Assembly (NCBI GenBank): GCA_040755155.1
Contig: JBFMBP010000153.1
Span: 106,010-170,009, forward strand
DNA from: Candidatus Omnitrophota bacterium
GTDB lineage: Bacteria; Hinthialibacterota; Hinthialibacteria; Hinthialibacterales; Hinthialibacteraceae
Length of the DNA stretch: 64,000 nt
Direction of reading: 5' to 3'
Below the pieces are notes generated by a model. It did no database searches and had not been told where the DNA came from. It saw nothing but the letters and a program-made list of their open reading frames with translations. Within the stretch, counting starts at the first letter, position 1. Every line of letters begins with the position of its first letter. This document shows, in pieces, positions 15,101-63,970 of the stretch. Both the position numbers and the translations under genes were made by a program.

Positions 15101-15659
15101 TAGGAATAGGTGTAATCGGCGAGGGCGTTGGAGTAAGAGTTAACGCATTTACATATTGTACTTTATGGTTCATATCAAAAAACATAAAGTCACTTCCATC
15201 TTTGTCAATTAAAGCAGCTCGAAATTTATATTCATGGCCAAATTGCGGGCCATTCCGAAATTTCGGTTCAACGATTGGATTATCAGGAATCCATGAAAAT
15301 AAAAAAGGACAGTCGATTAGCTGAACGCTGCACAATAATTCAAATTTAGTACTACTCTGGTAATCGCGTACATAGATATGAAAATTTATTTTACAGGGTT
15401 CGGTCCCCACCCCTGGGAACTTCCACCATAACGCCAATTCCCTCTCGTTTTCAAGATCGTAATCCCCCAATCCACATAAATTTTCGGCGGAATATTTATC
15501 GTCAGTGACAATAACGCAATTATAATTAAAAACAGGTTTGGCGATAGGCGTCTCCGTATTCGCATCTGGCGTTCTTGTTGGAGTCGGAGTGAAGTCCTGC
15601 GCGTTGGCGATAATCGATTGGACAAATAATAACCCTGTCAAAAGATGGATTTTTTTCAT
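12162..15659 (-). CDS. Large secreted FN3-like x6 + C-terminal FGE-sulfatase-domain protein. Paralog 3 of 3.
   Basis: Signal peptide MKKIHLLTGLLFVQSIIANAQ. Six modules ending in the xGPxFGxxYxFxV signature. C-terminal FGE-sulfatase block (RLPTEAEWEYACRAGTSTRLYWG..NAWGLFDMSGNVYEWCQDW). The N-terminal half is markedly AT-rich. Confidence 0.8.
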   Translation of the reverse strand: MKKIHLLTGLLFVQSIIANAQDFTPTPTRTPDANTETPIAKPVFNYNCVIVTDDKYSAENLCGLGDYDLENERELALWWKFPGVGTEPCKINFHIYVRDYQSSTKFELLCSVQLIDCPFLFSWIPDNPIVEPKFRNGPQFGHEYKFRAALIDKDGSDFMFFDMNHKVQYVNALTLTPTPSPITPIPTVPVNNIIVTDDRYSFEDLTQFIRVDYDSEDERELVIRWDLEMDSEDYGCKDFRAYVSTSENQKEEYLGHTGSGEKPFEIIWAPGSSLIDEKYRDGPQFGVKYYFNVRVIATRISNKILNTYSGNHPIYYLKWLDATSLPTPLETPNFPIPSPTWNSSMPSDRMIVTDNQYTYENLDGWLDYDTENDRELVLRWNPNESEKTNLDIVDYYVQLSINKSGFEHLGHTNSSKPPYIFAWKAGSELVSKIYRNGPAFGNMYNFHVFPVTKSNIIAGYGYYNYNTIRFMSGTNDYPRPTSTKTPLPSTKPTTPIPNFAIPFYEMIITDDEFSKENLCNKTDYDYADERELVLWWNMAEEKDYLREFQIFVNTKDLRNREYLGSTWQIEKPYHFVWKPNAPWVDLKFRHGPEFGHLYSFVMYYVDKIGMKWGSISTTDVLYTGYPNSTPHNIEKKTTPMPTPTLLPPTPTPTKTGKIYEIYVFDEPGASEDLSGKCDFDFPDDINLTISWETVITGVQGWDVYVRQDGLGYQFLAHCSADETSWDWRSNAPNVNPAYRKGPQFNHTYQFRVYPLGVASGPQMILEQSAPVLLLQEGEEPAPMPTIPIPDVPAGRVVTHTNLMKGNIPPPMDWLNKEDSVPDGRAILIAWNFGEDSALIKDYHIRIKVGEMDGNEFLGSTGSGEISYFEWSPKSEFYTSPAYREGPQKGKCYRFRIVGISSDGVKRVLESDWILNSEMIVQRIPLPNMPEHSKPLDFILIKAGTFLMGSPMIDQFRREDETQHEVTITKDFYIGKYEVTQEQWRSITQYNPYSGNYPIDSVSWYAAQAYAEMLSQLGLGKFRLPTEAEWEYACRAGTSTRLYWGDDEWMPNEQSKRMNYYVSIPYCCNYPVGLRHPNAWGLFDMSGNVYEWCQDWYGPYEVDICIDPAGAATGILHVCRGGGKTIYDCRSAYRYYSRNYSYGILDYGYASNGLRLVWEPDAGTQE

Positions 15660-15939
15660 CGCAAGTTTCCCTCGCATCGGTCCTTAAGCCGATTCTCTTT
15701 TGGAGAAAACCTTCGTTCATACGTTCCCGGCGAGATGGAGCGCCCCCCGCCCGCCGCCTTGGGTAGAATGTCTTTTGGGGAATGGATGACGAATGGATCG
15801 CGGGACTTTTCGCCTATTCCCCCTTTGCTTTATATTATCACAAAAATAGATAACGTACATAATAACAATCTAAAATATAACATAAAAATACTAAAATCAG
15901 CCGAAACCAGCCGGGCGGGAATTTCCTTCACTCTCATAT

Positions 15940-15968
15940 TGAACATTTGTTTAGTACGCGCTATAATT
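15940..15968 (+). promoter_or_regulatory. Candidate sigma-70 promoter (TTGAAC-17-TATAAT) overlapped by a LexA-box-like GAAC-N4-GTTT dyad upstream of umuD
   Basis: TTGAAC at 15940-15945 and TATAAT at 15963-15968 with a 17-nt spacer. GAACATTTGTTT at 15941-15952 resembles the CGAAC-N4-GTTCG SOS box used by many non-gammaproteobacterial LexA proteins, with one mismatch. Sits 38 nt upstream of the umuD ATG. Confidence 0.4.
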
Positions 15969-16005
15969 CTTACTGCAGGAAGGATGCGCGCGAGGTGGAG
16001 TCATC

Positions 16006-16437
16006 ATGAAAAACGAATTTTGGACGCTGGATAACGATTCTTTATTCGAGCCGAGGGCGGCGCCGTTGGCGGGGCCGAGCGCGGCGGCGGGATTTCCCTC
16101 GCCCGCCGACGATTACGTGGAAAAGCAACTGGACTTGAACGAATACCTGATTCACAACCCGGCGGCGACCTTTTTCGTGCGGGTGTCGGGAGATTCCATG
16201 ACCGGCGCGGGCATCCACCACGGCGACATCCTGGTGGTGGACCGCTCGCTGGAGGCGGCGGCGGGGATGGTGGTGGTGGCGGCGGTGGAGGGAGAGATGG
16301 TGGTGAAGCGGCTGCGGCGTCTGGAAGGCAAACTGGCGCTGACGCCGGACAACGACGCCTATCCCCCCATCGAGATCGGCGAGGAGACGGAATGCGCCGT
16401 GTGGGGAGTAGTTACCCATGCCATCCATGCGGTCTGA
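16006..16437 (+). CDS. umuD: UmuD-like S24 peptidase (LexA C-terminal-domain family), error-prone polymerase accessory subunit
   Basis: Ser/Lys dyad context [23 protein letters not shown] and VVKRL. AAG cleavage-site region. 143 aa. Overlaps the downstream Y-family polymerase gene. Confidence 0.85.
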
Positions 16438-17779
16438 AGCGAAGCGGCCTCCGGCCATCGCGCTGGCGGACTGCAATAACTTTTACGCCTCCTGCGAGCG
16501 GGTGTTCCGGCCCCATCTGGAGGGAAAGCCGGTAGCGGTGCTTTCCAACAACGACGGCTGCGTGGTAGCGCGTTCCAACGAGGCGAAGGCGTTGGGAATC
16601 GCGATGGGCGAGCCGTTCTTCAAAGCGCGGGCGCTCTTGGAACGGGCGGGAGGACAATTCTTTTCCTCCAACTATGCGCTGTACGGCGATATGTCGCAGC
16701 GGGTGATGAGCGCGCTGGCTCAGTTCACGCCGGATTTGGAAATCTACTCCATCGACGAGGCCTTTCTCAACTTGACGGGAATCCCCGCCGGGGACGCGGC
16801 GGACTATGCGCGGCGCATCCGGCGGGTGGTGAAGCAATGGACGGGCATCCCCGTCTCCATCGGCGTCGCCGAGACGAAGACGCTGGCCAAGATCGCCAAC
16901 CGCATCGCCAAAAAACAGCGCCCGGACGGCGTATTCGACCTGCGAGCGGCGCCCTCCCGCGAGGAGACGCTGGCGTCGGTCGCCGTGGAAGACGTGTGGG
17001 GCATCGGACATCGCTACGCTTTCCGGCTGCGCCAGCGCGGCGTGGAAACGGCGTTGGCGCTGCGCGACGCCGACGAGCGCTGGATTCAAAAGGAAATGGC
17101 GATGGGCATTGTCGGCGTGCGGCTGGTGTACGAACTGCGGGGGATTCCCTGCCTGCCGTTGGATCTCTGCCCCTCGCCGAAGAAAGAGATCGTCTGCTCG
17201 CGCTCGTTCGGGAGGCCGGTGGAGTCGCTGGCGGAACTGAAGGAAGCCACGGCGGAGTACGTCAGCCGCGCGGCGGAAAAGCTGCGGCGGCAAGGATCGC
17301 TGGCGGGCGGCGTGGGGGTGTACCTGATGACCAATCCCTTTAAAAACGAACCGCAGTACTACAACTCGGCCTATATCCCCTTCCCCGCGCCGAGCAACAT
17401 CACGCCGGAGATGATTGCGTACGCGCTGGCGGCGCTGGAGAGGATGTACCGCCCCGGCTACCGTTACAAAAAAACGGCGGTTTTGCTCAGCGGGCTGGTT
17501 CCGGACAACGTGATTCAGACCAGTTTCTTCGACGAGGACGACGAAAGCCGCATGAGGGGAATGCGGCTGATGCGGACCGTGGATAAAATCAACGCCCGGC
17601 TGGGAGGAGGAGCGGTGAAATTCGGAGCGGCGGGCATCGCCCAAGAATGGCAAATGCGGCGGCGGCATCGCTCGCCCGCCTACACGACGCGCTGGGACGA
17701 ACTGGCCGTGGTGAAATCGGGCGACGGATGCTTCCGGCGGGCGGCGCGGAAACGGAAAAACAAACGGGAAAAACGATGA
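16418..17779 (+). CDS. umuC: Y-family DNA polymerase (UmuC / Pol V catalytic subunit)
   Basis: N-terminal [53 protein letters not shown] is a classic UmuC/DinB palm motif. 453 aa. Coupled to umuD by a 20-nt overlap. The start may be the second ATG at 16427. Confidence 0.85.
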
Positions 17780-17924
17780 ATAAAGCGAAAAATTCGGCGA
17801 ATCAATATCGTCGGGATTCGCTTCGTTCGACCAATCCTAATTCTAAAATCCTACGAAGCAAAAGAAAAACAATCCTCTCCCCCCACTTCCTGAATCGCGA
17901 TATAATGCTTCCAGGAGATGAACC

Positions 17925-18149
17925 ATGCTGAAAACATTCCATGCCAGTCTTTACCGCGATCGGAACGGCTATTCTGCTCAATGCTTGGAAGTGGACATCG
18001 TCAGCCAAGGCGCAACGAAAGAAGCCGCGCTCGCCAACCTTAAAGAAGCAGTCGAACTCTACTTCGAACCGCCTCAAGCTCATCCCATGCCGGAAATCCA
18101 CGCCTTCGAGGTTGACCTTGCCGCCGCTGAAACCGCTTCCGTTTCGTGA
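17925..18149 (+). CDS. hicB: HicB-family antitoxin (UPF0150 N-terminal domain only)
   Basis: MLKTFHASLYRDRNGYSAQCLEVDIVSQGATKEAALANLKEAVELYFE matches the HicB/UPF0150 fold. 74 aa. Directly precedes and overlaps a HicA-like ORF. Confidence 0.65.
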   Translation: MLKTFHASLYRDRNGYSAQCLEVDIVSQGATKEAALANLKEAVELYFEPPQAHPMPEIHAFEVDLAAAETASVS

Positions 18150-45033: not shown

Positions 45034-46905
45034 TTACGAATAGGAAGGCATATCGAAGGTTTCTAGAAAGATTCCGAAGGTTAGGATAATCATGAGGAAA
45101 TCGGTTTCGAAGGTGGTGTTGACCGATGCCCCTTCCGCCGAATATCTCGCTTTGAGCCGTTCTACGGCGGCGGGATTGAAGTATCCTTGACGTTTAATCG
45201 TTTCAGTGGAAAGAAGATCATTAACCCAATCGATATTTCTTTGTAACAAATAAGGGCTGCCCGGAGCCACGAAGCCGAATTTTTCCCGGTTCAGAATCGG
45301 CGTAGGCAAATAATTCTTCGCCATCGCCCGCAGAATATATTTTTCCGTCGCATCCTTAATCATCATGGAAGGGGGAATCGTCTTGACGAATTCCACTAGG
45401 TCTACGTCGAGAAAAGGATACCGCGCTTCTACGGAGTTGGCGTAAGCCGGGCGGTCGCCATGATCGGCGACGAGGTGATCGGCGATCCTCAGTTTGAAAT
45501 CGAGATACGAACGCTTGTGCATAGGATGGCGGTTGCGCAGTTTTTCTTTATCGACTAGCGGATGATGAATCGATTCGAAATCCTCCATCCGCGCCGCCAA
45601 CGCTTCGGAATAGATAGCGCTCTTGGTTTCGCGGAAAGCGAGAAAATCTCGTTCGTAGAAGAAATGGGAATCGCCCCATAATTCCTCCCGCCGTTCGTTT
45701 TCCAGCATCGTCTCCACGTCGAAGGGATCGTCCATATCCGACGAGCGCGTCTGGTCGAGACGATAGCCGACGTATCCCGCAAAGAGTTCGTCCGAACCTT
45801 CGCCTGTGAGCACTACTTTCAATCCCGCCCGGCGAACTAGTTCCGAAAGCGCCAGAGAACAGGCGTCGTAGGATTCCTTTAACGGACATTCCGCATGATA
45901 AATAGCGCTGCGCAGCCGTTCTCCGATTTGCGGCCAATCGAATTCGGTTTCGTGATGAATGGAACCGACGTATTCCGACATTAGGCGTTGATAACGCCGT
46001 TCGTCGATCTCGGCTTGAGAAAAGAGGACGGAAAAGGAATGGCGCCGCTCGTTGGGACGCGCCGCATGAATGACGGAGGCGACAAGGCTGGAATCCAATC
46101 CTCCGCTCAGATAGAAGCCGACCGGCACATCAGCGTTCAGCCGGTAGAGCACGGCTTGATTGAATAACTCGTCCAACCGCCGAATGTAATAGGATTCCTC
46201 CCGCGGCGGTTCGATATCCTGTTCTTCGGGATAAACCAAATCCCAATATTCCCGCGTCTCGATTCCGCTTTCTTTTACGCGTAAATAATGTCCCGATTTT
46301 AGGGAATATATGCCATTGAACATAGTGGCGGGACTGACGAGGCCGGGAAAGGTGAAAATCTGATCCAACGCCGTCGGATTCACTTTATGCTTTATAGAAG
46401 AATGCGTAAGCAGCGCTTTAATCTCGGAAGCGAAGAGAAGCATGCCATCCGCTTGCGCATAAAACAGCGGGGCGACGCCGAAATGATCCCGCGCCAAAAG
46501 CAACTCGCGCCGCTTGCGGTCGAAGATGGCGAAAGCGAATTGCCCGTTGAGGCGGCGCAAAAAATCCGTCCCCTCCTCTTCGTAGAGATGAGGCAGCGCT
46601 TCTACATCGCACCGTGTGCGAAAGACATGCCCTTTGCTTTCTAACTGGCTCCTCAATTCCTTATAATTGTATATCTCTCCGTTGCAGATGGAGACGATGG
46701 ATTGGTCTTCGTTGAAGTGCGGTTGATTGCCGCTGGAAAGATCGATGATCGAAAGGCGCGAGAATCCCAATCCCGCGCCGTCAGCGGCAAAATACCCCGT
46801 ATCGTCGGGACCGCGATGAGCCAGCATCTTCACCATCGCCGCCAGAGTATCATGGTCAATGTCGCATTCTCGATTCGAAGCGAAGATGCCAGCTATTCCG
46901 CACAT
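45034..46905 (-). CDS. asnB: Asparagine synthetase (glutamine-hydrolysing), class II amidotransferase
   Basis: Start trimmed so Cys follows the initiator Met (MCGIAGIF, the N-terminal nucleophile). Synthetase domain with SGGLDSS PP-loop. Confidence 0.85.
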   Translation of the reverse strand: MCGIAGIFASNRECDIDHDTLAAMVKMLAHRGPDDTGYFAADGAGLGFSRLSIIDLSSGNQPHFNEDQSIVSICNGEIYNYKELRSQLESKGHVFRTRCDVEALPHLYEEEGTDFLRRLNGQFAFAIFDRKRRELLLARDHFGVAPLFYAQADGMLLFASEIKALLTHSSIKHKVNPTALDQIFTFPGLVSPATMFNGIYSLKSGHYLRVKESGIETREYWDLVYPEEQDIEPPREESYYIRRLDELFNQAVLYRLNADVPVGFYLSGGLDSSLVASVIHAARPNERRHSFSVLFSQAEIDERRYQRLMSEYVGSIHHETEFDWPQIGERLRSAIYHAECPLKESYDACSLALSELVRRAGLKVVLTGEGSDELFAGYVGYRLDQTRSSDMDDPFDVETMLENERREELWGDSHFFYERDFLAFRETKSAIYSEALAARMEDFESIHHPLVDKEKLRNRHPMHKRSYLDFKLRIADHLVADHGDRPAYANSVEARYPFLDVDLVEFVKTIPPSMMIKDATEKYILRAMAKNYLPTPILNREKFGFVAPGSPYLLQRNIDWVNDLLSTETIKRQGYFNPAAVERLKARYSAEGASVNTTFETDFLMIILTFGIFLETFDMPSYS

Positions 46906-46948
46906 AAATAAACCCGGTTCATCCGGCAAGTAAGTACTTGAGATTATT

Positions 46949-47108
46949 AACTTGAGCCTCTTGCAATACTCAATTATTCCTCCCCCAAGCCTGGGGGAGG
47001 TTAGGAGGGGGTTGTTTTAAGTCTAATAAAATCAACCCCCCTAACTCCCCCCAAACTTGGGGGGAGAATTAAAAGCGGATTTTATTAATTTTGCAAGAGC
47101 CTCAACTT
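46949..47108. repeat. ~160-bp nested palindromic intergenic element (MITE/REP-like), with a partial second copy at 49954-49995
   Basis: Outer arms AACTTGAGCCTCTTGCAA (46949-46966) and TTGCAAGAGCCTCAACTT (47091-47108) are 16/18 complementary. Inner palindromes CCTCCCCCAAGCCTGGGGGAGG and CCCCCCAAACTTGGGGGG. 49954-49995 repeats about 42 nt of the left half. Confidence 0.65.
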
Positions 47109-50034: not shown

Positions 50035-50166
50035 GACGATCCGGCAAAAAGTATTGATGATGATATCGGGCGACAACCTATTGGGGGTGCAGGCATCTTG
50101 CCTGCGGGATATCTTGTGCAGGCAAGATGCCTGCACCCCCAAAAATTGACTTTTTGCCGCTTCAAC
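50035..50166. mobile_element. MITE-like structured repeat, copy 2 (variant with a long perfect central hairpin)
   Basis: Shares both ends with copy 1 (GACGATCCGGCAAAAAGTATTGATG ... ATTGACTTTTTGCCG). The centre forms GGGGGTGCAGGCATCTTGCCTGC / GCAGGCAAGATGCCTGCACCCCC. Confidence 0.7.
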
Positions 50167-50713
50167 AAGAATGGTAACCAGTTTACCCGATTGAAGAGAA
50201 ATCCTTGTTTTTAAGCCCTGAAAGGGCGAAATAAAATAGCCCAGGCCAACGGCCTGGGAACAGGATCGGCAAAGACCTAAGCTCTGAAAGGGCGAAATAA
50301 TAAATTCGTATTTCTTCTCTTCCTACGGCTAAATAGTTACCAAGAATCGAAGAGAATATTCTTTTCTTGCTGCGCGATCGAATTGCGAAACCACGAAAAG
50401 GCTCGAATTCCTCGAAATTATTGAATCACGGATATCGCGGATTCTTTTAAATTTCACGGAAAAAAGCAACTCACGGCGCGTTCCCATACGCCAAATTTTT
50501 TCTTTTTTCGTGTTTTTCTTTTTCGTTTCGTGTTTTCGTGATTCGAAACGGCAATTCTAATCGACTACTTAAACTTCTTAATCCCGCATTACATAAGTTA
50601 CTAGTCACTTGTCACTAATCACTGTTTTTAGGATAAACAACCCTGGATTCAAGACTATTTGACAAAAAAAATGTAATATTTCCTTCTCCGCAAGATAGTA
50701 AGATAGTAGAAAG

Positions 50714-53398: not shown

Positions 53399-56077
53399 AT
53401 GCTTTTCCCATTTCATTTCGTTTCATTCCTATGGTTCGCGATTCTATGGTTCGCTAATGCGGCATTCGCCGAATCCACTCCTCCGGTCAATCCGGCGCCG
53501 TCGCAAAACGGCGTTAAACTTTCGATTCCCGAGAACAACGAAAGCGCTGCAACCATCGGCGTATTCGATCGAACCGCCGATTGGGGAACGCCCGAATTTC
53601 CGCCGAAATTGGGGAAGAACAAGGTTTCGGGAAAAATCAACTTGGCAACATCCACCGATGGCCTCCTTTATGATATATACGGTAACGGAGACCACATTTA
53701 CGATAATTCCGATGAAGGTTTTTTCGCCTATGCGGAAAAAACCGGATCCTGGCGATTGGAAAGCCGGATCGAACTCATGGAGATGGGAGGCGGCAACAAT
53801 TACGCTCACTCCGGACTCATGATCCGGGAAAAAGGAGGAAGCGCCCAATCGAAGTTATATTCTCTATTTCTAGTCTGGAATTATATCAATAAAAATTTTA
53901 TGCTTTTGGCCGCCTGGCGAAGCAAAGAAGGCGCCGCCATTCAAGCCGCCGCCGTTCAGGAATTCGATCCCCAAGAGAAAAGTTTTTATCTTCGCGTCTC
54001 GCGCTGCGCCTCGAAAAACATATTCTATTCCGAGTGGTCGTCCGGCAACGCCATTTGGAATGCGGCACATTTTTTTTCGATGGAAATGGCGGAGAACGCC
54101 GCCTACGGCGCGGCTGTTTGCAATCAAATCGATAACGAATTGCTGGCTCGCGCCCGCCTTTCCCGCGTATCTCTGGAATACGCCGAGCCTTTTGCTGTTC
54201 GTTTCTTATCCACGAATGGCTACGCTTCCGATATTACCGTCTTTCTGGAAATCTCGAATCCCCGCGACGCCACGGCTGTGGTAAACGTCAATGAGTATCT
54301 TCCCATCGATTGGACGGTGGATTCCATCAGCGGCGGGGGAATTGAATTCGATGGATTCATCCGTTGGATTTTCCCGGCGCCGCCAGGGTCCACATATTTA
54401 ACCTATTTGGCCCATCCTTCCGCCAACGACAATGGGCAAACCGAATTTCGCGGAGAGATCGGCTCCAGACCGATATTCGGCCAGAACCGGACGATCTTTC
54501 GCAAAATCCGCATGGACGCTTTGCGTCTGGCGATCTTTTCGGGTACTCCTCTGCTTTTATTTCTCATTCATATCTGTCTCTTTTGGTTTTATCCCAAGTC
54601 GATCGAAAACCTCTTTTACTCTTTGTTTCTTGTTTTCGCGGCGCTTACCCACTACGAACTTTATTGCACGGCTCATTTGCCGGGAGGCTTGGCCTATTCG
54701 GACAAATTTTACCTCTTTCTCTACACGCAATTCGGCATGTTGATCCTCTTTTTTCACAAAACGATTTACGTGAAGTTAACCAAGTATTTTTGGTGCATCT
54801 TTACTCCCTTTGTTTTGGCGTTTCTTTACATGACGTTGGTTAGCAACGTTACGCAATCCAATTATTTTTTCTTTCGCGGACTATCCTATCTGTATTACTT
54901 CGAAATCCTGCGCATCGTTTTCGCCGCTCATAAAAGACGCGCCGATGGAGCCGCGCTCCTTTCCTTCGGCATTATCGCTTACGCTTCGCTCAATCTCTGG
55001 CTCTCCCTCGTCAATTATTGGGGACGCCCCAATTTCACGCTTCCCCACCAGGGCAGCATCGCCAACCTGCTTTTTCTCCTCTCTATGTCCGTCTATCTCG
55101 CCTACCGATACGCGAAAACCAGCAAGGACCTTGCCGCTCTGACCGCTGAATTGGAAAATCGCGTGGAACAACGCACGGCGGAACTCAAAGCCGCTCAAAA
55201 TCATTTGATTCAATCGGAAAAAATGGCGTCGCTAGGCCATTTGGTCGCCGGCATCGCTCATGAAATCAACAATCCCATTAATTTCATCAAAAGCAATATC
55301 TTTCCCCTCAAAAATTATCTAACCGGTTATAAACAAACCATCGGCGTCGTCTCCAACATCAAAGACCAATTGCCGGACGATGTCCGAACGCAATTCGAAA
55401 CCGCCGTCAAAACCAACGACCTGGAATTTGTGGAAGAAGACATCGAGAATCTGCTGCACTCCTTCGAAGAAGGCTCGAACCGCATCGTGAAAATCGTCGC
55501 CGATCTTCGTCAATACATCCGAACGGATAAACGCTTCCATTCGGTATACGATCTCCGAAGCGCCCTAGAGACCTCTTTGAGTTTGTTGCAAAACCAATAT
55601 AAAGGCCGCATCGCCATTCATTCGGATTTCGGCGGCGACGTCAAACTCTTCTGCTCGCCCGGCCAGATCGACCAGGTTATGATGAATGTTTTGAAAAACG
55701 CTATCGAAGCCATTCCGGGCGAAGGAAACATTTGGATCGACGTCAGCCAAGACGATCGGAAAGCGATCGTCAAAATCCGGGACGATGGCAGAGGCATTCC
55801 GCCGGAAAACCTGAATCGAATCTTCGATCCGTTTTTCACGACCAAACCGATCGGCTCAGGCACGGGTCTTGGCCTCTCCCTCGCTTATAACCTGATAGAA
55901 CAACATGGAGGAGAAATCTTTGTGGAAAGCGAACCAGGTCGTGGCGCAACCTTCACGATCATGCTTCCTATTCAACAAGAAATTGAGGAGGATGCCTCCC
56001 CGCCGAGCGAAATAAATGATATGATAATCCACGATTCCGACGTGAAAAGAGGGGAGAAATTCAATGAATTCCAATGA
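53399..56077 (+). CDS. Sensor histidine kinase with large periplasmic N-terminal domain and 7-TM region (7TMR-DISM-like), HisKA and HATPase_c domains
   Basis: Signal peptide, about 330-aa extracytoplasmic domain, seven hydrophobic helices. H-box [20 protein letters not shown]1/G2 boxes ..[46 protein letters not shown]. No adjacent response regulator. Confidence 0.85.
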
Positions 56078-56474
56078 TATCCGATCCCAAGCCATGAGCG
56101 TATTGAAAGCGAAATCCATTTTTTATATGGCTACAGTGGACAACGGTTCTCCCAGAGTCCGGCCCATGACCCTTCTTTGCGCCGATGGATTCAGGATTTG
56201 GACTGCCTCCCATAAAGAAACCGCCAAAATGAAAGAGATCGCCCAACACAACGAGACGGAAGCCTGTTTTCTCGACGAAAAAAACCGCCAAGTGCGCATT
56301 CTGGGAACGGTGAAGGTCTACGAAGACGAGAAAACATGGGCCAACCTGCCCTGCCCCCCAGAAGGAATACCCCAAATCGAAGATCCCAATTACGTCCTGC
56401 TCTTGATCGAACCCAAACTCGTCCGTTTCGTCAACGACTGGAGCATGGATTATAAAATCATCCCGATCGAATAA
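56064..56474 (+). CDS. Pyridoxamine 5'-phosphate oxidase-like FMN-binding split-barrel protein (general stress protein 26-like)
   Basis: ..AMSVLKAKSIFYMATVDNGSPRVRPMTLLCADGFRIWTASHKETAKMKEIAQHNETEACFLDEKNRQVRILG matches the PNPOx-like fold. 136 aa. The start may be an internal Met. Confidence 0.7.
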   Translation: MNSNDIRSQAMSVLKAKSIFYMATVDNGSPRVRPMTLLCADGFRIWTASHKETAKMKEIAQHNETEACFLDEKNRQVRILGTVKVYEDEKTWANLPCPPEGIPQIEDPNYVLLLIEPKLVRFVNDWSMDYKIIPIE

Positions 56475-56966: not shown

Positions 56967-57227
56967 ATGCCAAAAACGGAATCGAAAAAACAAGCCGTTC
57001 TCACCGGAGTCGTAACGGCGGCGGAGTGGGATGAAAACGGCAACGTTGTAGGAGTGATTTTAGCCACGGAAGACGAATCCGAGTATAGAATTGCCAACAG
57101 TCCCCAAGGTAAGAAACTTTTCAACCTATTACAGCATCAAATCAGAGCCACAGGCATTGTCGGCGAAGACAAATCGGGAAAGAAAACCTTATTGGTCTCG
57201 CAATTTCAAGTACTTCAACAATGGTAA
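56967..57227 (+). CDS. Small hypothetical protein (86 aa), first ORF of the kamA-containing gene string
   Basis: ORF with AT-rich upstream region. No recognisable domain (..TGVVTAAEWDENGNVVGVILATEDESEYRIANSPQGKKLF..). Confidence 0.4.
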   Translation: MPKTESKKQAVLTGVVTAAEWDENGNVVGVILATEDESEYRIANSPQGKKLFNLLQHQIRATGIVGEDKSGKKTLLVSQFQVLQQW

Positions 57228-57342
57228 ATGCAAGAAATATTTGTTCCCAAGCGTTATCGATCAAATCTTTATTCGTAAGTTGTTTCTTATAGAAGGAATA
57301 AAAAAACCAATCAAAATTTCAAAGGAGGAACAGATAAGACTG

Positions 57343-58686
57343 ATGAGCCATCTCACAATTCTGACCGAGCAGGAAGACAAACCTCCCAGCGAGGATCCTT
57401 ACCCTAATGATCGGATTCGTCCAGCGACGAATGAAAATCTTCCCAGCCGTTTGGCCGCTTCTCGCGCCCTATTTATCTCCCCAACCAACGGAACTGCCAA
57501 GGAAATCCTCAAAAAACCCTCTCTTCCTTCCCAGAGAAAAAGAGAAAGCCGGAAATTCCGCCTCTCTCCCCAAACGCGCGCTTTCCGCTTGAGGCAATTC
57601 CCCAACGCCAGCGACGACGAATGGAACGATTGGCATTGGCAGTTGCGCAGCCGCATCCGCGACATCGTAACGCTATCGCGCATTATCGAACTGACCGATG
57701 ACGAGCGTAACGCCATTGAAAGACATCGAGGATCGCTGCCGGTGGGCATAACGCCTTATTACGCCAGCCTGTTGGACCCCTGCGACAGCGCCCAACCGAT
57801 CCGGCGTACGGTCGTTCCCGTTTCGAACGAATATCTTCATGCTCCGGGCGAAGCGGACGATCCTTTAAACGAGGATGATGATACGCCGGTTCCCGGATTG
57901 GTCCACCGCTATCCGGATCGCGTTCTCTTCCTGGTTAGCGGCTTCTGCTCCACCTATTGCCGCTACTGCACCCGGTCCCGCATGGTGGGCAGCCAAGGCG
58001 AATACCGCTTCGACCGGAATCAGTGGGAAAAGGCTCTTCAGTACATCGAATCGACTCCCGCCGTACGCGACGTTTTGTTGTCGGGCGGCGATCCACTGAC
58101 GTTGACCGACGATTCGCTGGAATGGCTGTTGCAGCGGCTGCGCCGTATTCCGCACGTCGAAATGATCCGCATCGGGGCCAAAGTCCCCGCCGTGCTTCCC
58201 CAACGCATCACGCCCGCCTTGACGCGTATGTTGAAGCGCTATCATCCATTGTGGATGAGTCTTCATTTCGCCCATCCGGACGAATTGACGCCCGAAACCG
58301 CCCAGGCTTGCGAACGCCTGGCCGATGCGGGCATCCCCTTGGGCAGCCAGACGGTTCTTATGGCGGGCGTAAACGACAATGTGGAAACGATGATGCGCTT
58401 GATGCAAGGCTTGTTGAAAATCCGCGTCAAGCCCTATTACCTCTATCAATGCGATCCCATTACCGGTTCCGCCCATTTTCGGACGCCGGTGCAAAAGGGA
58501 TTGGAAATCATTCAGGGATTGAGGGGACATACGACGGGCTACGCCGTGCCTCATTACGTCATCGACGCTCCCGGCGGCGGCGGCAAAATCCCCTTGCTGC
58601 CCGAAACCATCGTGGGTCGCGATGGAAACGACTTATTGTTGAAAAATTACGAAGGAAAAATTTTCCGCTATCCGGACCCGGTATGA
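57343..58686 (+). CDS. kamA: Lysine 2,3-aminomutase (KamA/AblA family radical SAM enzyme)
   Basis: Collinear with Clostridium KamA: ..DEWNDWHWQLRSRI.., ..TPYYASLLDP.., radical SAM CSTYCRYCTRS, ..LSGGDPL.., ..YYLYQCDPITGSAHFRTPVQKGLEIIQGLRGHTTGYAVPHYVIDAPGGGGKIP. Both lysine-binding Asp positions are conserved (GVNDN, QCDP). Start trimmed to the ATG at 57343 (AAAGGAGG 14 nt upstream). The upstream 57091 start is rejected. Confidence 0.85.
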   Translation: MSHLTILTEQEDKPPSEDPYPNDRIRPATNENLPSRLAASRALFISPTNGTAKEILKKPSLPSQRKRESRKFRLSPQTRAFRLRQFPNASDDEWNDWHWQLRSRIRDIVTLSRIIELTDDERNAIERHRGSLPVGITPYYASLLDPCDSAQPIRRTVVPVSNEYLHAPGEADDPLNEDDDTPVPGLVHRYPDRVLFLVSGFCSTYCRYCTRSRMVGSQGEYRFDRNQWEKALQYIESTPAVRDVLLSGGDPLTLTDDSLEWLLQRLRRIPHVEMIRIGAKVPAVLPQRITPALTRMLKRYHPLWMSLHFAHPDELTPETAQACERLADAGIPLGSQTVLMAGVNDNVETMMRLMQGLLKIRVKPYYLYQCDPITGSAHFRTPVQKGLEIIQGLRGHTTGYAVPHYVIDAPGGGGKIPLLPETIVGRDGNDLLLKNYEGKIFRYPDPV

Positions 58687-58846
58687 ATCGATGCCAATTA
58701 TAATTGCTCCTAATTAATTCCTTCTCCCTTTGGGAGAAGGCTAGGATGAGGGGAAATCCTCGCCTCACCTCTTCTAATTTTGTAAAGAGAAATTTAAATA
58801 GCGGCAAATTGGCGATTGACGCCGGGAAAACGAAACGAGGCTTTGT

Positions 58847-59356
58847 ATGAGTCTATGCGCTCAATGCGCTCGAGTTCAACGTACTTGTTGTCAATATACG
58901 GATGTTTTGGTTACGGATGGAGATATCCTTCGCATAAGAGAGTATACGGACCAGCCGGATTTCTACGAAAACAGAATTCCAGTCGATCCATCTTATCTCG
59001 ATCAAAACGACGATCCCAACTGGAATGCTTACACTGTTCTTCCAGACAAATCGCGCCGGGTGCTGAAACAACAAGAAAATCGCGATTGTATCTTTTTAAC
59101 CGAACAAGGATGCGTTCTTCCTCTCGAAGCGCGTCCTTTGGTGTGCCGGTTGTATCCAATTTACTTCACGGAATCGGGACTCGACGGCCTCGCCGAGGGG
59201 TGTCCTCCCCAACTTCAGACGCCGGGCAAGCCGTTGCTTGACGCCGTAGGCGTCGATATTGTCAGCGCCGAGCGTTGGCGCCATCTGTTATATCATGAAT
59301 TACGGACAGGGAGCGTTCTCTATGAAAATCGGCATTACTTACGACCTGCGGGATGA
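58847..59356 (+). CDS. YkgJ/UPF0153-family cysteine-cluster (putative Fe/Zn-binding) protein
   Basis: N-terminal CAQCARVQRTCC and later CIFLTEQGC and CRLYPIYF match the YkgJ-type Cys-cluster family. 169 aa. Confidence 0.55.
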   Translation: MSLCAQCARVQRTCCQYTDVLVTDGDILRIREYTDQPDFYENRIPVDPSYLDQNDDPNWNAYTVLPDKSRRVLKQQENRDCIFLTEQGCVLPLEARPLVCRLYPIYFTESGLDGLAEGCPPQLQTPGKPLLDAVGVDIVSAERWRHLLYHELRTGSVLYENRHYLRPAG

Positions 59357-60332
59357 CTACCTCGCGGAAGGTTATAGCGAAGAAGAGACGGCGGAATTCG
59401 ACCGTCCCGAAACGATCGATGCGTTGGAGCGAACCCTTTGCGACTTGGGATTCGCGACGGACCGCATCGGCAATATACGCCGCCTCGCGGAACGGCTGGC
59501 GCGGGGAGACCGTTGGAATCTCGTCTTCAATATCGCGGAAGGAATGCGCGGCGTCGGACGGGAGGCGCAGGTTCCTTGTTTGCTGGAAGCCTACGACATT
59601 CCCTACACTTTTTCCGATCCTCTCGTCCTTTCGCTCACTCTTCACAAGGGAATGTGCAAGCAGGTCGTCCGAAGCCTTGGCATCCCCACTCCCGATTTCT
59701 GCGTCGTGGAGACGGAAGCGGATCTGGCTCGTGTGAATCTTCCCTACCCTCTGTTCGCAAAACCCATCGGCGAGGGTACAGGCAAAGGCATTGACCCGAC
59801 ATCCAAAATACGCTCCCCTCAAGAATTGCTCGCGGCGGGCCGACGCCTTCTCGCTCAATTCAACCAACCCGTCCTCGTAGAAACCTTTCTGCCGGGACGG
59901 GAATTTACCGTCGGCATTCTGGGCGCGGGAGAAGAAGCCCGCGCCGTCGGCGCTATGGAAATCCACCTGAAAGCCGAGGCGGAAAACGACGTCTATTCCT
60001 ATAAAAATAAAGAATACTGCGAAGAACTCGTGGACTACAGTTGGGCGGACGACGAAATGGCGAAGCAATGCCAAGAGATCGCTCTGCAAGCCTGGAGAGG
60101 TCTGGGTTGCCTCGACGGAGGGCGCGTCGATCTTCGCGCCGACGCCAACGGCGTCCCCAATTTTATGGAAGTCAATCCCCTGGCCGGGCTGCATCCCGAA
60201 CATTCCGATCTTCCAATCCTCTGCGCGAAAGCGGGAATAACCTACCAGAAGCTGATCGGGACGATCGTCCAGTCCGCCTGGAAACGAGCCCTTGCCGCCC
60301 GCCCCGCTCATCGCATTGAAATCGCATCGTGA
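59322..60332 (+). CDS. ATP-grasp enzyme, D-alanine--D-alanine ligase-like (paralog 1)
   Basis: Start at MKIGITYDL (GGGAG RBS). Ddl-like N-domain. ATP-grasp central and C-terminal regions (..PLFAKPIGEGTGKGI.., ..VLVETFLPGREFTVGIL.., ..GRVDLRADANGVPNFMEVNPLAG). Overlaps the YkgJ-like gene by 35 nt. Confidence 0.75.
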   Translation: MKIGITYDLRDDYLAEGYSEEETAEFDRPETIDALERTLCDLGFATDRIGNIRRLAERLARGDRWNLVFNIAEGMRGVGREAQVPCLLEAYDIPYTFSDPLVLSLTLHKGMCKQVVRSLGIPTPDFCVVETEADLARVNLPYPLFAKPIGEGTGKGIDPTSKIRSPQELLAAGRRLLAQFNQPVLVETFLPGREFTVGILGAGEEARAVGAMEIHLKAEAENDVYSYKNKEYCEELVDYSWADDEMAKQCQEIALQAWRGLGCLDGGRVDLRADANGVPNFMEVNPLAGLHPEHSDLPILCAKAGITYQKLIGTIVQSAWKRALAARPAHRIEIAS

Positions 60333-60607
60333 ATAGAAAGCGGAAAATGCGTTTAGTTTCTTTTACTAATCACTCGCGGGCGCCAAGGGTAAAATGCTGT
60401 TTATTTTACCCTTAAAAAAAACTTGTGCATTTGAACAAAAAATGCATCCAAAAAAAAGACTGGGCTATTTCCAAATGCCCCTTTAAAGGGGCTAACGATA
60501 CTAGCCCGCCGTTTCAACGGCGGGACGGCTGTAATCGCCGAGAGCCTTTCCGCGGTAGGGAGGCTTGTCGCAAATCGCTGTTTTTAGGATGAATCCTGTC
60601 GCGAACG

Positions 60608-61618
60608 ATGATAAAAAAAATCGCTGTCGTGCATAGCCAAGTTTCCGATAATCCCAGCTTGGACGATTTGGATACGATAGAACAAGCCCGGATTGTTTCG
60701 CAAACATTGCGGGAAATGGGATACGAAGTTTCCATTCTGCCTTTCGTCAATCGTTTCGAAATTCTTTCGGAACAACTGCAAGCCATAGCGCCGGACCTCA
60801 TTTTCAATCTCGTCGAATCCATCGACGGCCAAAGCCGCTCGATTCACGCCGCTCCCGCCATGTTCGAAGCCTTGAAACGTCCCTATACGGGATCGGGCGC
60901 AGAAGCCATCCGCGACACGACGAATAAACTAAAGGCGAAGCAACGTCTGCAATCTCGCGGCGTCCATACTCCCGCTTGGATTCCTTTGAAAGGCTTCCGG
61001 ACGAATATCGCGCGCCCCAGACATACCTATATCATCAAATCCGTCTGGGAACACGCTTCCATCGGTCTGGATGAAGATTCCATCCTCGCGCCGGAAACGC
61101 CCGAACAACTGTTGCGGGAAATGGAGCGCCGGGCGCCGAGCCTGGGAGGCGATTGCTTCGCCGAAGAATTCATCGAAGGACGGGAATTCAACCTCTCTCT
61201 TCTCGCTGCGAAGGACGGAGCGCAAGTATTGCCCCCGGCGGAAATCTCGTTCGACGATTATCCCGAAGGCAAGCGGCGCGTAGTCGGTTACCGCGCCAAG
61301 TGGGAGGCGGATTCGTTCGAATACCACCATACGCCCCGGCGCTTCGATTTTCCCGCCTCGGATCAAGCCTTGCTAAATAAACTTAGTTCCATCGCCATGC
61401 AATGTTGGAAGATTTTTAGCTTGCGCGGCTACGCCCGCGTCGATTTCCGCGTCGATCCCTCCGGAAAACCTTGGGTGTTGGAAATCAACGCCAATCCTTG
61501 TCTTTCGCCCGACGGCGGTTTTGCGGCGGCCATCGAACGCGGCGGATTGTCTTTTCGACATGCCATTCAAAGCATCATCGACGGCGCCGTTTACGATATT
61601 AATCTTACATATATATAG
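60608..61618 (+). CDS. ATP-grasp enzyme, D-alanine--D-alanine ligase-like (paralog 2)
   Basis: MIKKIAVVHSQ.. N-domain. ..YIIKSVWEHASIGL.., ..EEFIEGREFNLSLL.., ..GYARVDFRVDPSGKPWVLEINANPCLSPDG. 336 aa. Confidence 0.75.
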   Translation: MIKKIAVVHSQVSDNPSLDDLDTIEQARIVSQTLREMGYEVSILPFVNRFEILSEQLQAIAPDLIFNLVESIDGQSRSIHAAPAMFEALKRPYTGSGAEAIRDTTNKLKAKQRLQSRGVHTPAWIPLKGFRTNIARPRHTYIIKSVWEHASIGLDEDSILAPETPEQLLREMERRAPSLGGDCFAEEFIEGREFNLSLLAAKDGAQVLPPAEISFDDYPEGKRRVVGYRAKWEADSFEYHHTPRRFDFPASDQALLNKLSSIAMQCWKIFSLRGYARVDFRVDPSGKPWVLEINANPCLSPDGGFAAAIERGGLSFRHAIQSIIDGAVYDINLTYI

Positions 61619-61627
61619 GGAAAAGAA

Positions 61628-62155
61628 ATGAACGAATCCAAACAAAACAACAATACCACCCGTCAAACGATCCTGGCCGCCCTTTCCTACCGGGAAACCG
61701 TAAATCCAGACGATGCGGATAACGTCGGAAACATCGTGAAATCGACGGGCTTCTTTGCCGAGGACGAAATCCTCATCGCCGTCGAACTTGTCCAGGAAAG
61801 GTTGGAGAAGGGATTGCCGAGCGGCTACCATTTTCTCTTCGCCGATCTCAATGGCCGCACAGTGGGCTATACCTGTTTCGGCCCCATCCCCGCCACATCT
61901 TGCAGCTACGATCTGTATTGGATCGCTGTGCATGACGAATTCCGGGGCATGGGAATCGGTAAAGAACTTTTAAAGCGGACGGAACCGCTGATCGCCAAAT
62001 TGGGCGGCCGCCGGATATATATAGAGACATCATCCCGCGATTTATACGAGCCGACTCGCGCGTTTTATTTGAAATGCGGCTATATCCAAGAGGCGTTCCT
62101 GACCGACTTCTATCACCCCGGCGATTCTAAGGTCATCTACGTCAAAACCGTATAA
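61628..62155 (+). CDS. GNAT-family N-acetyltransferase
   Basis: ..YDLYWIAVHDEFRGMGIGKELLKRTEPLIAKLGGRRIYIETSS.. shows the acetyl-CoA-binding R/Q-x-x-G-x-G/A motif. 175 aa. 9-nt gap after ATP-grasp 2. Confidence 0.8.
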   Translation: MNESKQNNNTTRQTILAALSYRETVNPDDADNVGNIVKSTGFFAEDEILIAVELVQERLEKGLPSGYHFLFADLNGRTVGYTCFGPIPATSCSYDLYWIAVHDEFRGMGIGKELLKRTEPLIAKLGGRRIYIETSSRDLYEPTRAFYLKCGYIQEAFLTDFYHPGDSKVIYVKTV

Positions 62156-62230: not shown

Positions 62231-63970
62231 TCAACGCCGCTCGACAAGTTTTTTCAATCCTAAATAATCGTGAATAGCGAATCCTGCGAAGGAAGGATAG
62301 GCTCGCAGTTCGGGCAAAGATTCCTCCATCGCTCTCCATAGCGAATCGCATCCCAGCCGATAGAAACTCAATTGATCGCCCGATACGATGACGGCGCTGT
62401 CTATAGGCCAATATTGGAACGTGGCGGATTGCATTCCATCTTCCAAAATACGCCGTTTAAACGCTTCGAACTGGTTCGGCGGCAATAAATAAATCTTCGT
62501 TTTCCCTTCGCGGGACGCCGCGATCAAGAAACGATCCGCCGGCGAGAGAGAAGGCAAACCCGGCCGGCAACGGCTGCGAAAAGAATACACCGTCTCGTCC
62601 GGCAATTTTGCGGTTTCCAAACCTATGACGATGGATTTCCCCCATTTCGCCGCATAGCCGAGCATACCGGCGGCAAGGTGGGTGACGCTGGATAATTTCG
62701 TCCGGTAATTCATTGCTACAACCCCATCCGCGATGTCGATAACATGCTGCGCCGCCGTCTTGCGTTCGCCGCGAAAATCGACGAACAACGGCTCCCCCGT
62801 CCATTCGTCCACGGCGTCATACCAAGAAGGGATATCCACGCCGACATACAAACGATTTCCCTGCGCGCGTTCCGCGCCTTCCGCCAAGGACTCCAAAAAA
62901 TTTCGTAAAAACTCTTCCTGCCGCGCGCTGTTGAATCCGGGGAGCGCATGCGGTTCGACATCGAAGTGAACGCCGTAAAACCGCATCCCCGCTTTCGCCA
63001 TCCGATTGAATCGTATCGCATTATCCACCCGCCGAAGCCAGAGGCTGCGCTGCTCGGGAAGAATAAAATGCGGATCGCCGTCGAGAGCGTGAACGCGAAT
63101 CCCTCTCTCGGAAATTCTTCCAATCCATTCCGCGAGTTTTTGCAGATCGGAATTCCACCCCGCCGCCGTCGCCCAATCGATCAAACAGGGGGGGATTTGC
63201 AAATAAACATGTTGAATATCGCGCTGCGCCAAAAAATCGGCGAATTCGTCCCGCCGCGCTTCGTCCGCCAGCAAATCGCGAGTATTCCACGCCCAGATGG
63301 CCTTTTCGATAGTCCGCGCTTCGCCTGAAGACTTCGATAATGGGGGCAAGGAGGGCAAATTCCGGCGATCCGCGCCGAAAGCCAGCGATTTCAATTCGAT
63401 TCGTCCCGCCCCCGCACCGGCGGCTTCCAAAACAACGACGGCCAATTGATCGCGCCGAATCCGCGCTGGGAATTTTTCTATGGGAACCACGGCTTGTTGC
63501 CAATAGGATTCGATGCGTCCGGAAGGTAAAAATTGGCCGGCCTCTCCTATAGGAAGCGAATCTTCCTTCTTGAGGAACTCGGCGTCGGCGATCCTAAGCA
63601 GAATCTTTTCGCCTCCATTTCCGCCCCTAATCCAAAAGGACATAAAAGCCAACGGTTTGGCGTCGAAAAAAATTCGCTGCGCCTCCGCCGCTTTGGAATC
63701 GAAAAGATGAATCCATAAACCGCAATACGAGTTCTCTTTTTTGTCATACGCCATCGACAAGGCGCGGCGGCCATCGGAAGTCGACTCTAGAGAAGCGGTT
63801 GCGGAAGAAGGATGGCGCTGAAACGCATTGAAGACGCCGCCCAACCGATTCGCCGATACATCATCGAAGAGAGATACAACGAAATGCGATTCCGTACTCG
63901 ATGGAACACGGCGAGCGTTCGCCGGGATCGCACCCTTTACCACCGGTTTACTCAGCCGATACGCATTCAA
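62231..63970 (-). CDS. Hypothetical protein, possibly a TIM-barrel glycoside-hydrolase-like (GHL10/DUF4015-like) enzyme; the 5' end may extend beyond the window
   Basis: 579-aa ORF. Central region with alternating beta/alpha pattern (..HVYLQIPPCLIDW.., ..GIRVHALDGDPHFIL.., ..FYGVHFDVEPH.., ..YVGVDIPSWYD.., ..VVAMNYR). Only 30 nt remain upstream inside the window. Confidence 0.35.
   Translation of the reverse strand: MNAYRLSKPVVKGAIPANARRVPSSTESHFVVSLFDDVSANRLGGVFNAFQRHPSSATASLESTSDGRRALSMAYDKKENSYCGLWIHLFDSKAAEAQRIFFDAKPLAFMSFWIRGGNGGEKILLRIADAEFLKKEDSLPIGEAGQFLPSGRIESYWQQAVVPIEKFPARIRRDQLAVVVLEAAGAGAGRIELKSLAFGADRRNLPSLPPLSKSSGEARTIEKAIWAWNTRDLLADEARRDEFADFLAQRDIQHVYLQIPPCLIDWATAAGWNSDLQKLAEWIGRISERGIRVHALDGDPHFILPEQRSLWLRRVDNAIRFNRMAKAGMRFYGVHFDVEPHALPGFNSARQEEFLRNFLESLAEGAERAQGNRLYVGVDIPSWYDAVDEWTGEPLFVDFRGERKTAAQHVIDIADGVVAMNYRTKLSSVTHLAAGMLGYAAKWGKSIVIGLETAKLPDETVYSFRSRCRPGLPSLSPADRFLIAASREGKTKIYLLPPNQFEAFKRRILEDGMQSATFQYWPIDSAVIVSGDQLSFYRLGCDSLWRAMEESLPELRAYPSFAGFAIHDYLGLKKLVERR

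Follow-up and report, generated by a model that had tools for sequence, protein, structure and literature searches.

A conserved KamA aminomutase and two Ddl-fold ATP-grasp ligases form a candidate pathway to an acetyl-capped beta-lysine oligoamide

Introduction

What might a bacterium make with a lysine aminomutase, two ATP-grasp ligases and an acetyltransferase that are encoded in a row? The question is raised by a stretch of 64,000 nt from the metagenome-assembled genome of an uncultured Candidatus Omnitrophota bacterium (GenBank assembly GCA_040755155.1, contig JBFMBP010000153.1, positions 106,010 to 170,009 of the forward strand; this whole stretch is called the window), where six co-directional open reading frames (ORFs) lie on the plus strand at 56967–62155. 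A reading of the DNA alone, made before any comparison and referred to here as the sequence-only reading, had described the six ORFs and their domains and had suggested a beta-lysine amide pathway that it did not recognise. All six were found with these domains and none was interrupted. The idea itself stood, as the core genes are conserved together, the ligases differ from D-alanine–D-alanine ligase (Ddl) and the aminomutase differs from EpmB. We propose that the cassette encodes a pathway, independent of non-ribosomal peptide synthetases (NRPS), to a small, acetyl-capped, beta-lysine-containing oligoamide that is kept in the cytoplasm. Both product and role are deduced from the genes, and we give this proposal an even chance of being right.

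Several known systems share features with the cassette. AblA/AblB of methanogens and KamA/YodP of B. subtilis consist of an aminomutase and a GNAT acetyltransferase and make N-epsilon-acetyl-beta-lysine. Ngg and AsnO, with an ATP-grasp and a GNAT activity, make N-acetylglutaminylglutamine amide (NAGGN), an N-acetyl dipeptide amide. In pyrrolysine biosynthesis the radical-SAM lysine mutase PylB feeds the ATP-grasp ligase PylC, and in gammaproteobacteria KamA-family enzymes provide beta-lysine for elongation factor P (EF-P). The cassette is a member of none of AblAB, NAGGN and PylB/PylC because it lacks their defining features, and it combines their logic. In kind it belongs with the NRPS-independent amide-ligase pathways, here built on beta-lysine, and its enzyme families are familiar.

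Gene content and conservation of the cassette

Four genes in the window make up the core. KamA (57343..58686, +; 447 aa; Radical_SAM and LAM_C domains) is of the lysine 2,3-aminomutase (LAM) type that depends on radical SAM chemistry and pyridoxal phosphate (PLP). AG1 (59322..60332, +; 336 aa; Dala_Dala_lig_C, 9.6e-28) is a predicted Ddl-fold ATP-grasp carboxylate-amine ligase, AG2 (60608..61618, +; 336 aa; Dala_Dala_lig_C, 9.2e-17) is a second Ddl-fold ATP-grasp ligase, and GNAT (61628..62155, +; 175 aa; Acetyltransf_1, 2.1e-13) completes the set. The two accessory members are a small ORF without a family match (56967..57227, +; 86 aa) and, between KamA and AG1, a YkgJ/UPF0153-type Cys-cluster protein (58847..59356, +; 169 aa; PF03692 with CxxCxxCC, 24.8 bits against a cut-off of 23). 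The KamA frame is open from 57091, but an AAGGAGG stands 15 nt before the ATG at 57343, which is the likely start and gives 447 aa as in relatives. The AG1 start agrees with a 336-aa database protein (P0125); this protein, P0001 and P0121 are 100% identical to AG1, AG2 and the small ORF, respectively. From 5' to 3' the intergenic gaps measure 115, 160, -35, 275 and 9 nt, so that two of them are not short, contrary to the earlier description. Median spacings in related loci were 15, -4 and 32 nt, which are lower bounds as ORF starts were set at the first start codon.

Species-representative genomes were scanned with AG2-specific motifs, and at least 591 genomes encode a relative. The best 80 of these at least 591 matches were mostly from Desulfobacterota (Syntrophales, Smithella, Syntrophus, Desulfobacterales and Desulfatitalea), and Phycisphaerae, other Planctomycetota and unclassified bacteria were also among them; further look-ups added loci from Omnitrophota, Eremiobacterota and KSB3. 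This gave 84 distinct related loci from Desulfobacterota, Planctomycetota, Omnitrophota, Eremiobacterota and KSB3. Counts of upstream genes rest on the 63 loci whose sequence reaches 3.6 kb or more upstream of AG2, and counts of downstream genes on the 63 that extend 3 kb or more downstream. AG1 was present in 59/63 loci and KamA in the same 59, always in the order KamA-AG1-AG2, and every locus with either of the two had both (59/59). A GNAT gene followed AG2 in 53/63 loci. The KamA-AG1-AG2 order is common to Omnitrophota, Desulfobacterota, Planctomycetota and Eremiobacterota, and the arrangement of the cassette, repeated in dozens of species of several phyla, goes far beyond what chance would give. 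It is made up of two tight modules, KamA with AG1 and AG2 with GNAT, which normally travel together, and the remaining genes are lineage-specific extras. The co-conservation expected for a true pathway was thus borne out for a core of three to four genes, although not for the unit of six that had been proposed, as the small ORF (about 30% of loci) and the YkgJ-type gene (about 10%) are accessory.

Among the conserved neighbours of the related loci we found no transporter, export, envelope or cell-wall (mur, fts, pbp) genes, and no gene that supplies a second building block was conserved in the cassette. Fpg, PhoU/PiT, MurI, ThyX, GGDEF and an AI-2E transporter recurred as neighbours only in Syntrophales-type synteny and were taken as lineage effects for that reason. 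Ion-homeostasis genes stood next to the cassette in two loci only. In a KSB3 locus (L086, 3857-4804) a gene of the Na+/Ca2+-exchanger family (PF01699) lies between AG1 and GNAT, and in L001 (11596-16398) a PF01699 gene adjoins GNAT, with CdaA (c-di-AMP synthase), TrkA and TrkH after it. The sequence-only reading had also pointed to an asnB gene 10 kb upstream as a possible link to NAGGN-like chemistry. This link was refuted, since asnB (45034-46929) lies on the strand opposite to the cassette and has no homolog in any related locus.

KamA resembles lysine 2,3-aminomutase and AblA

KamA aligned with LAM from Clostridium subterminale (2A5H) at 465 bits over residues 83-447. In the alignment C202, C206 and C209 (CxxxCxxC) matched the cluster cysteines of 2A5H, and R211, D371, D408 and K415 were equivalent to R134, D293, D330 and K337, all conserved. 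In LAM, we take R134 to bind the substrate carboxylate, D293 and D330 to bind the epsilon-ammonium group and K337 to bind PLP. The three cysteines and all four residues were invariant in 62/62 cassette KamA orthologs, in agreement with the earlier remark that both aspartates that hold the lysine epsilon-amine are kept. The KamA subfamily carries an N-terminal extension of about 80 residues that is not conserved and is missing the very end of clostridial LAM, its last 47 residues or so.

When KamA was compared with curated models, the best NCBIfam match was to AblA (TIGR03820) at 492 bits, below the cut-off of 525; the match spans model positions 2-361 of 417, and the C-terminal part is absent in KamA. 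The general KamA-family model was passed at 356 bits (cut-off 199). Scores for glutamate 2,3-aminomutase (423 bits, cut-off 650), arginine 2,3-aminomutase (398 bits, cut-off 600) and EpmB (258 bits, cut-off 369) were all too low. The possibility that KamA falls in the EpmB clade, which would have undone the proposal, was answered in the negative by the EpmB score against the 492 bits for AblA. Judged by its residues and model scores, KamA is a lysine-specific, LAM/AblA-like enzyme and not an EpmB, and the expected reaction, from free L-lysine to beta-lysine, is well supported. Lysine fermentation was considered as a setting for this reaction; its partner genes kamDE, kdd, kce and kal were not among the conserved neighbours.

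The closeness to AblA, just below its cut-off, is also what would be seen if the locus were a plain AblA/AblB-type pathway in which KamA and GNAT make the osmolyte N-epsilon-acetyl-beta-lysine and the ATP-grasp genes are passengers. A GNAT is usually present, and the Na_Ca_ex, CdaA and TrkA/H genes beside or inside the cassette in two loci would suit an osmolyte. We nevertheless give this explanation very little probability. KamA was tied to AG1 in all 59 loci, whereas the GNAT was tied or fused to AG2 and not to KamA; the ten loci without a GNAT in cis (10/63) all had both ligases; no beta-lysine acetyltransferase model was found among the NCBIfam matches of GNAT; and the supposed passengers are strongly conserved and catalytically intact in sequence.

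Two Ddl-fold ligases with altered substrate pockets

AG1 and AG2 share 25% identity, and their identities to E. coli DdlB are 27% and 24%, respectively. Because they are about as distant from each other as each is from DdlB, they are ancient paralogs and not a recent duplication, which qualifies the earlier description of paralogous ligases. The best NCBIfam matches of both were Ddl models, at 145 bits for AG1 and 102 bits for AG2, and both fell short of the cut-off of 243. No curated family in Pfam or NCBIfam names the ligases or the cassette.

To compare residues, 66 orthologs each of AG1 and AG2 were aligned with E. coli DdlB. The positions for ATP, Mg and catalysis (DdlB K97, K144, E180, E187, K215, R255, D257, E270 and N272) were invariant in AG1 and in AG2, and for this reason both are probably active ligases. 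The residues that we take to bind D-Ala in DdlB are E15, S150, Y216 and S281/L282. These positions were replaced in AG1 and AG2, and each replacement was invariant or nearly so among the 66 orthologs. E15 is Ala in AG1 and Asp in AG2; S150 is Thr in AG1 and Ala in AG2; Y216 is deleted in AG1 and is Trp in AG2. The pair S281/L282 reads S/D in AG1 and A/G in AG2, so that L282 becomes Asp in the former and Gly in the latter, and G276, which remains Gly in AG1, is Cys in AG2. A fold comparison placed AG2 nearest to small-molecule Ddl enzymes rather than to ATP-grasp enzymes that modify proteins. Taken together, AG1 and AG2 are best described as predicted Ddl-fold carboxylate-amine ligases with new substrate pockets, and the fold favours small-molecule substrates. 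A plasmid search with AG1 found only distant ATP-grasp genes (at most 34% identity) in an unrelated CapA context.

These results also bear on the suggestion that the ATP-grasp proteins are cell-wall enzymes, either Ddl-like or stem-peptide ligases, that add beta-lysine or a D-amino acid to peptidoglycan precursors. The Ddl fold and the Pfam assignment point that way, as do database names such as 'D-alanine--D-alanine ligase' and the label 'putative D-alanine N-acetyltransferase' on 2R7H, the nearest solved relative of GNAT. The database names of the relatives are, however, automatic labels based on similarity; the scores lie far under the Ddl cut-offs; E15, S150, Y216 and L282, which bind D-Ala, are replaced; and the conserved neighbours include no mur, fts or pbp genes. 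We give next to no credence to a cell-wall function. Whether the ligases were bona fide Ddl enzymes had been named earlier as a decisive point, and the scores, the replaced D-Ala-binding residues and the lack of a mur/fts context show that they are not.

The acetyltransferase and a possible link to translation

GNAT shows the acetyl-CoA motif R-G-M-G-I-G. Its only close solved relative was 2R7H (1.4e-38), an uncharacterised structural-genomics entry named 'putative D-alanine N-acetyltransferase of GNAT family', and the one relevant mention of 2R7H in the open-access papers searched names it a generic structural neighbour of TacT. Against NCBIfam, GNAT gave only weak sub-threshold matches, with RimI at 41 bits (cut-off 86), and no beta-lysine acetyltransferase model was among them. 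In several relatives AG2 and GNAT are joined on one polypeptide (P0034, P0052, P0072, P0077 and P0082).

One genus-level lineage of Desulfobacterota (L041, L043, L044, L050 and L052) carries AG2-GNAT without KamA or AG1 within 8 kb. In this lineage tgt starts 3 nt after GNAT (span 5653-10655 in L041), and in L041, L044 and L052 an efp gene, recognised by its KPGKGQ loop, lies 1-2 kb upstream of AG2-GNAT. A different explanation would therefore be a route of a new type in which ATP-grasp enzymes attach beta-lysine, followed by an acetyl group, to a translation component such as EF-P, in place of the EpmA (PoxA) ligase and in anaerobes of several phyla. The supply of beta-lysine for EF-P by KamA-family enzymes in gammaproteobacteria is a precedent, and like the EpmB/EpmA system the cassette would pair a KamA-family enzyme that makes beta-lysine with an ATP-dependent ligase that attaches it. 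The neighbourhood of tgt and efp in the Desulfobacterota lineage, the unusually strong conservation of AG1 across phyla and the weak best match of GNAT to RimI would all agree with such a route. We nevertheless consider it very unlikely. An efp gene was found within 8 kb of cassette genes in 3/86 loci, all from the one lineage that has no KamA-AG1 nearby, and none was found in the window. KamA is LAM/AblA-like and fell below the EpmB cut-off, no EpmA-like (LysRS-like) gene was present in the cassette or among its conserved neighbours, and the fold of AG2 is nearest to small-molecule Ddl enzymes and not to those that modify proteins. The small ORF offers no invariant Lys, Glu or C-terminus as a modification site and is absent from most loci.

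Deacetylase fusion and accessory ORFs

In 14/63 loci, or about a quarter, a 595-aa fusion protein is encoded between AG2 and GNAT, and the GNAT gene always comes after it (L001 9117-10904 and 13 other loci). No NCBIfam model covers this protein. Its N-terminal domain is GNAT-like, and the best solved relatives of its C-terminal domain are acetylpolyamine amidohydrolases (APAH; 7e-73). The fusion is predicted to remove the acetyl group again in these lineages, which would imply an N-acetyl-aminoalkyl group, for example an N-epsilon-acetyl group on the side chain of beta-lysine, and a reversible capping.

The same fusion invites a variant of our proposal that differs from it in the nature of the product. 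Here the ligases would act iteratively or alternately and build a polycation of the oligo- or poly-beta-lysine type, a polyamine surrogate or nitrogen store whose charge is tuned by GNAT acetylation and APAH-type deacetylation. The accessory deacetylase is nearest to acetylpolyamine amidohydrolases and is fused to a GNAT-like domain as in cycles of polyamine acetylation and deacetylation, two different ligase pockets could serve both amines of beta-lysine, and the cassette has no conserved gene for the supply of a second building block. On the other side, no primer-binding or membrane component was found, and we regard the polycation as unlikely, while the short, capped oligoamide remains the product that we prefer.

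The YkgJ-type protein was encoded between KamA and AG1 in 6/63 loci, and its 3' end overlaps the start of AG1 by 35 nt both in the window and in L003, the closest Omnitrophota relative; no relative with a solved structure was found. An iterative search detected the small ORF in about 19 loci. At E<=1e-3 the family of this ORF comprises 792 representatives, mostly stand-alone proteins of 80-130 aa, and the cassette-linked members come in one cytoplasmic form and one form with a signal peptide. The only invariant residues are structural Gly, Tyr and Leu, with no conserved Lys, Glu or C-terminus. A role as a carrier, substrate or precursor of a peptide that is made on ribosomes and modified after translation (RiPP) was rejected in general: the small ORF occurs sporadically, and no residue that could be modified is conserved in it. 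The combination that marks RiPPs of the graspetide type, a precursor peptide that is conserved and has a core open to modification, together with an MdnC-type ATP-grasp enzyme, was not found at these loci. An Eremiobacterota small ORF at the same position is not homologous to that of the window. In our reading both the small ORF and the YkgJ-type protein are lineage-specific accessories. The small-ORF family (P0245-P0394) is an unannotated one of small, probably beta-barrel proteins, and the structure model of the small ORF was too poor for fold assignment. The family also includes members with many repeats, among them P0323 (756 aa, 10 matched stretches) and P0375 (1082 aa).

Proposed pathway and its relation to known systems

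In the pathway that we propose, KamA would turn free L-lysine into beta-lysine, and AG1 would then use ATP to form a first amide bond that involves beta-lysine; AG1 is assigned to this step because it is obligately linked to KamA. By analogy with DdlB, the invariant Asp that AG1 has in place of L282 would be suited to hold a diamino nucleophile by its second ammonium group, and the Ala in place of E15 suggests that the acyl donor lacks a free alpha-amine. AG2 would form a second amide bond, and its Asp in place of E15 suggests a donor in which an amine, for example the beta-amine, is still free. GNAT would cap a remaining amine with acetyl-CoA as the acetyl donor. AG2 and GNAT are sometimes fused and so probably act in succession. 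A cytoplasmic location of the product is most likely, as genes for export, transport or the envelope are not conserved alongside the cassette, and the lack of conserved transporter, export and cell-wall genes argues against a siderophore and against a cell-wall modifier. The product could serve as a metabolite that resembles a compatible solute or a polyamine. The ion-homeostasis neighbours in two loci and the AblAB and NAGGN precedents suggest a compatible solute, and a function that resembles that of polyamines or needs little of the product is just as possible.

Several points weigh against this proposal. The assignment of donors and nucleophiles is an analogy to DdlB, drawn from its sequence and the roles of its residues, and is not a structural analysis of bound ligands. 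AG1 is 65-74% identical across phyla, and conservation as strong as this would also suit an enzyme whose partner is a macromolecule. In 10/63 loci no GNAT was found within 3 kb and both ligases were kept in all ten, so acetylation is perhaps not obligatory. A further difficulty is the Desulfobacterota lineage that lacks KamA-AG1 and in which AG2-GNAT, next to efp, seems to share an operon with tgt. Many carriers come, by their record titles, from fens, groundwater, lake sediment, reactors and similar places low in salt, which fit a bulk osmolyte badly. Many carriers are also energy-limited syntrophs, to which a bulk osmolyte at a cost of 2 ATP and an acetyl-CoA per molecule would be unattractive.

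A comparison with AblA/AblB and KamA/YodP showed that the cassette shares with them a LAM-type KamA with lysine-binding residues and a neighbouring GNAT. It differs from AblA/AblB in the two conserved ATP-grasp ligases, catalytically intact by sequence, that stand between KamA and GNAT. KamA is linked to AG1 and GNAT to AG2, and no AblB-type acetyltransferase is paired with KamA. In contrast to the AblA and LAM models, the cassette KamA is without the C-terminal approximately 50 residues. Like Ngg/AsnO, the cassette has an ATP-grasp ligase and a GNAT that are fused in some relatives, and would give an N-acetylated, peptide-like solute without an NRPS. The order in the fusion is reversed compared to Ngg, with the ATP-grasp domain first and then the GNAT, and the ATP-grasp domain is of the Ddl type and not of the RimK or cyanophycin type. 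No amidotransferase is conserved with the cassette, and the building block would be beta-lysine. As in PylB/PylC, a rearranged diamino acid from a radical-SAM lysine mutase would then be joined in an amide by an ATP-grasp ligase. Finally, the ATP-grasp catalytic core and fold of Ddl and VanA are present in AG1 and AG2, but the identity is only 24-27%, the substrate-binding residues are replaced and a cell-wall gene context is lacking.

Full-text searches of open-access papers found no paper on the cassette. If the proposal is true, an undescribed metabolite derived from beta-lysine is made, by a compact set of three or four enzymes, in several hundred anaerobic species that are uncultured or hard to grow; syntrophs, sulfate reducers, Planctomycetota, Omnitrophota and Eremiobacterota are among them. 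Ddl-fold ligases would gain a chemistry beyond cell-wall dipeptides, and the use of beta-lysine would widen past N-epsilon-acetyl-beta-lysine, EF-P modification, antibiotics and lysine fermentation. The label 'D-alanine--D-alanine ligase', now on hundreds of proteins, would give way to a correct annotation. The cassette is both widespread and compact, and its size permits direct heterologous reconstitution.

Regulation and other features of the window

A family of bacterial enhancer-binding proteins seemed to recur near the cassette, but its copy in the window lies 18 kb away, and sigma-54 control was rejected as a candidate. A search for -24/-12 promoters gave 23 matches against 20.8 expected, and none stood out. 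Upstream of the cassette no riboswitch or known RNA family was found, either in the window region or at 8 related loci, and none of the six proteins matched PADLOC models of defence systems at E<=0.001. Like the lack of a conserved transporter, these negatives agree with the proposed pathway.

Two genes lie just upstream of the cassette (53399-56474): that of a sensor histidine kinase of 892 aa, whose N-terminal region is large, and that of a PNPOx-like FMN-binding protein (56064-56474). They overlap by 14 nt, and neither is kept beside the cassette in other loci. Downstream, a 579-aa ORF (62231-63970, -) is convergent with GNAT and has no Pfam or NCBIfam match. In L003, a 592-aa PAD_porph protein, similar to agmatine or peptidyl-arginine deiminases, is encoded after GNAT on the same strand (10015-11793); it falls far under the cut-offs for agmatine deiminase. 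An equivalence of the 579-aa ORF with this PAD-like gene was rejected, as the two proteins are unrelated.

An Acido-Lenti-1 RNA (RF01687) was matched in the window at 50214-50258 (-) with 47.7 bits against a gathering score of 37, and a weaker look-alike (60476-60524, -; 24.8 bits) lies inside the 275-nt spacer between AG1 and AG2. Both sites have a GGGCUA core in common and may be a repeated hairpin element of this genome. Long hairpins at 46975-47072, just past asnB, and at 50076-50147, which adjoins the Acido-Lenti-1 match, gave sub-threshold matches to unrelated miRNA-precursor models; because these matches fall on both strands, the hairpins were taken as long inverted repeats. Within 14001-18000 of the window the GC content jumps from 0.388 (14-16 kb) to 0.615 (16-18 kb), compared to a window mean of about 0.51, and this could mark foreign DNA or an RNA/repeat region.

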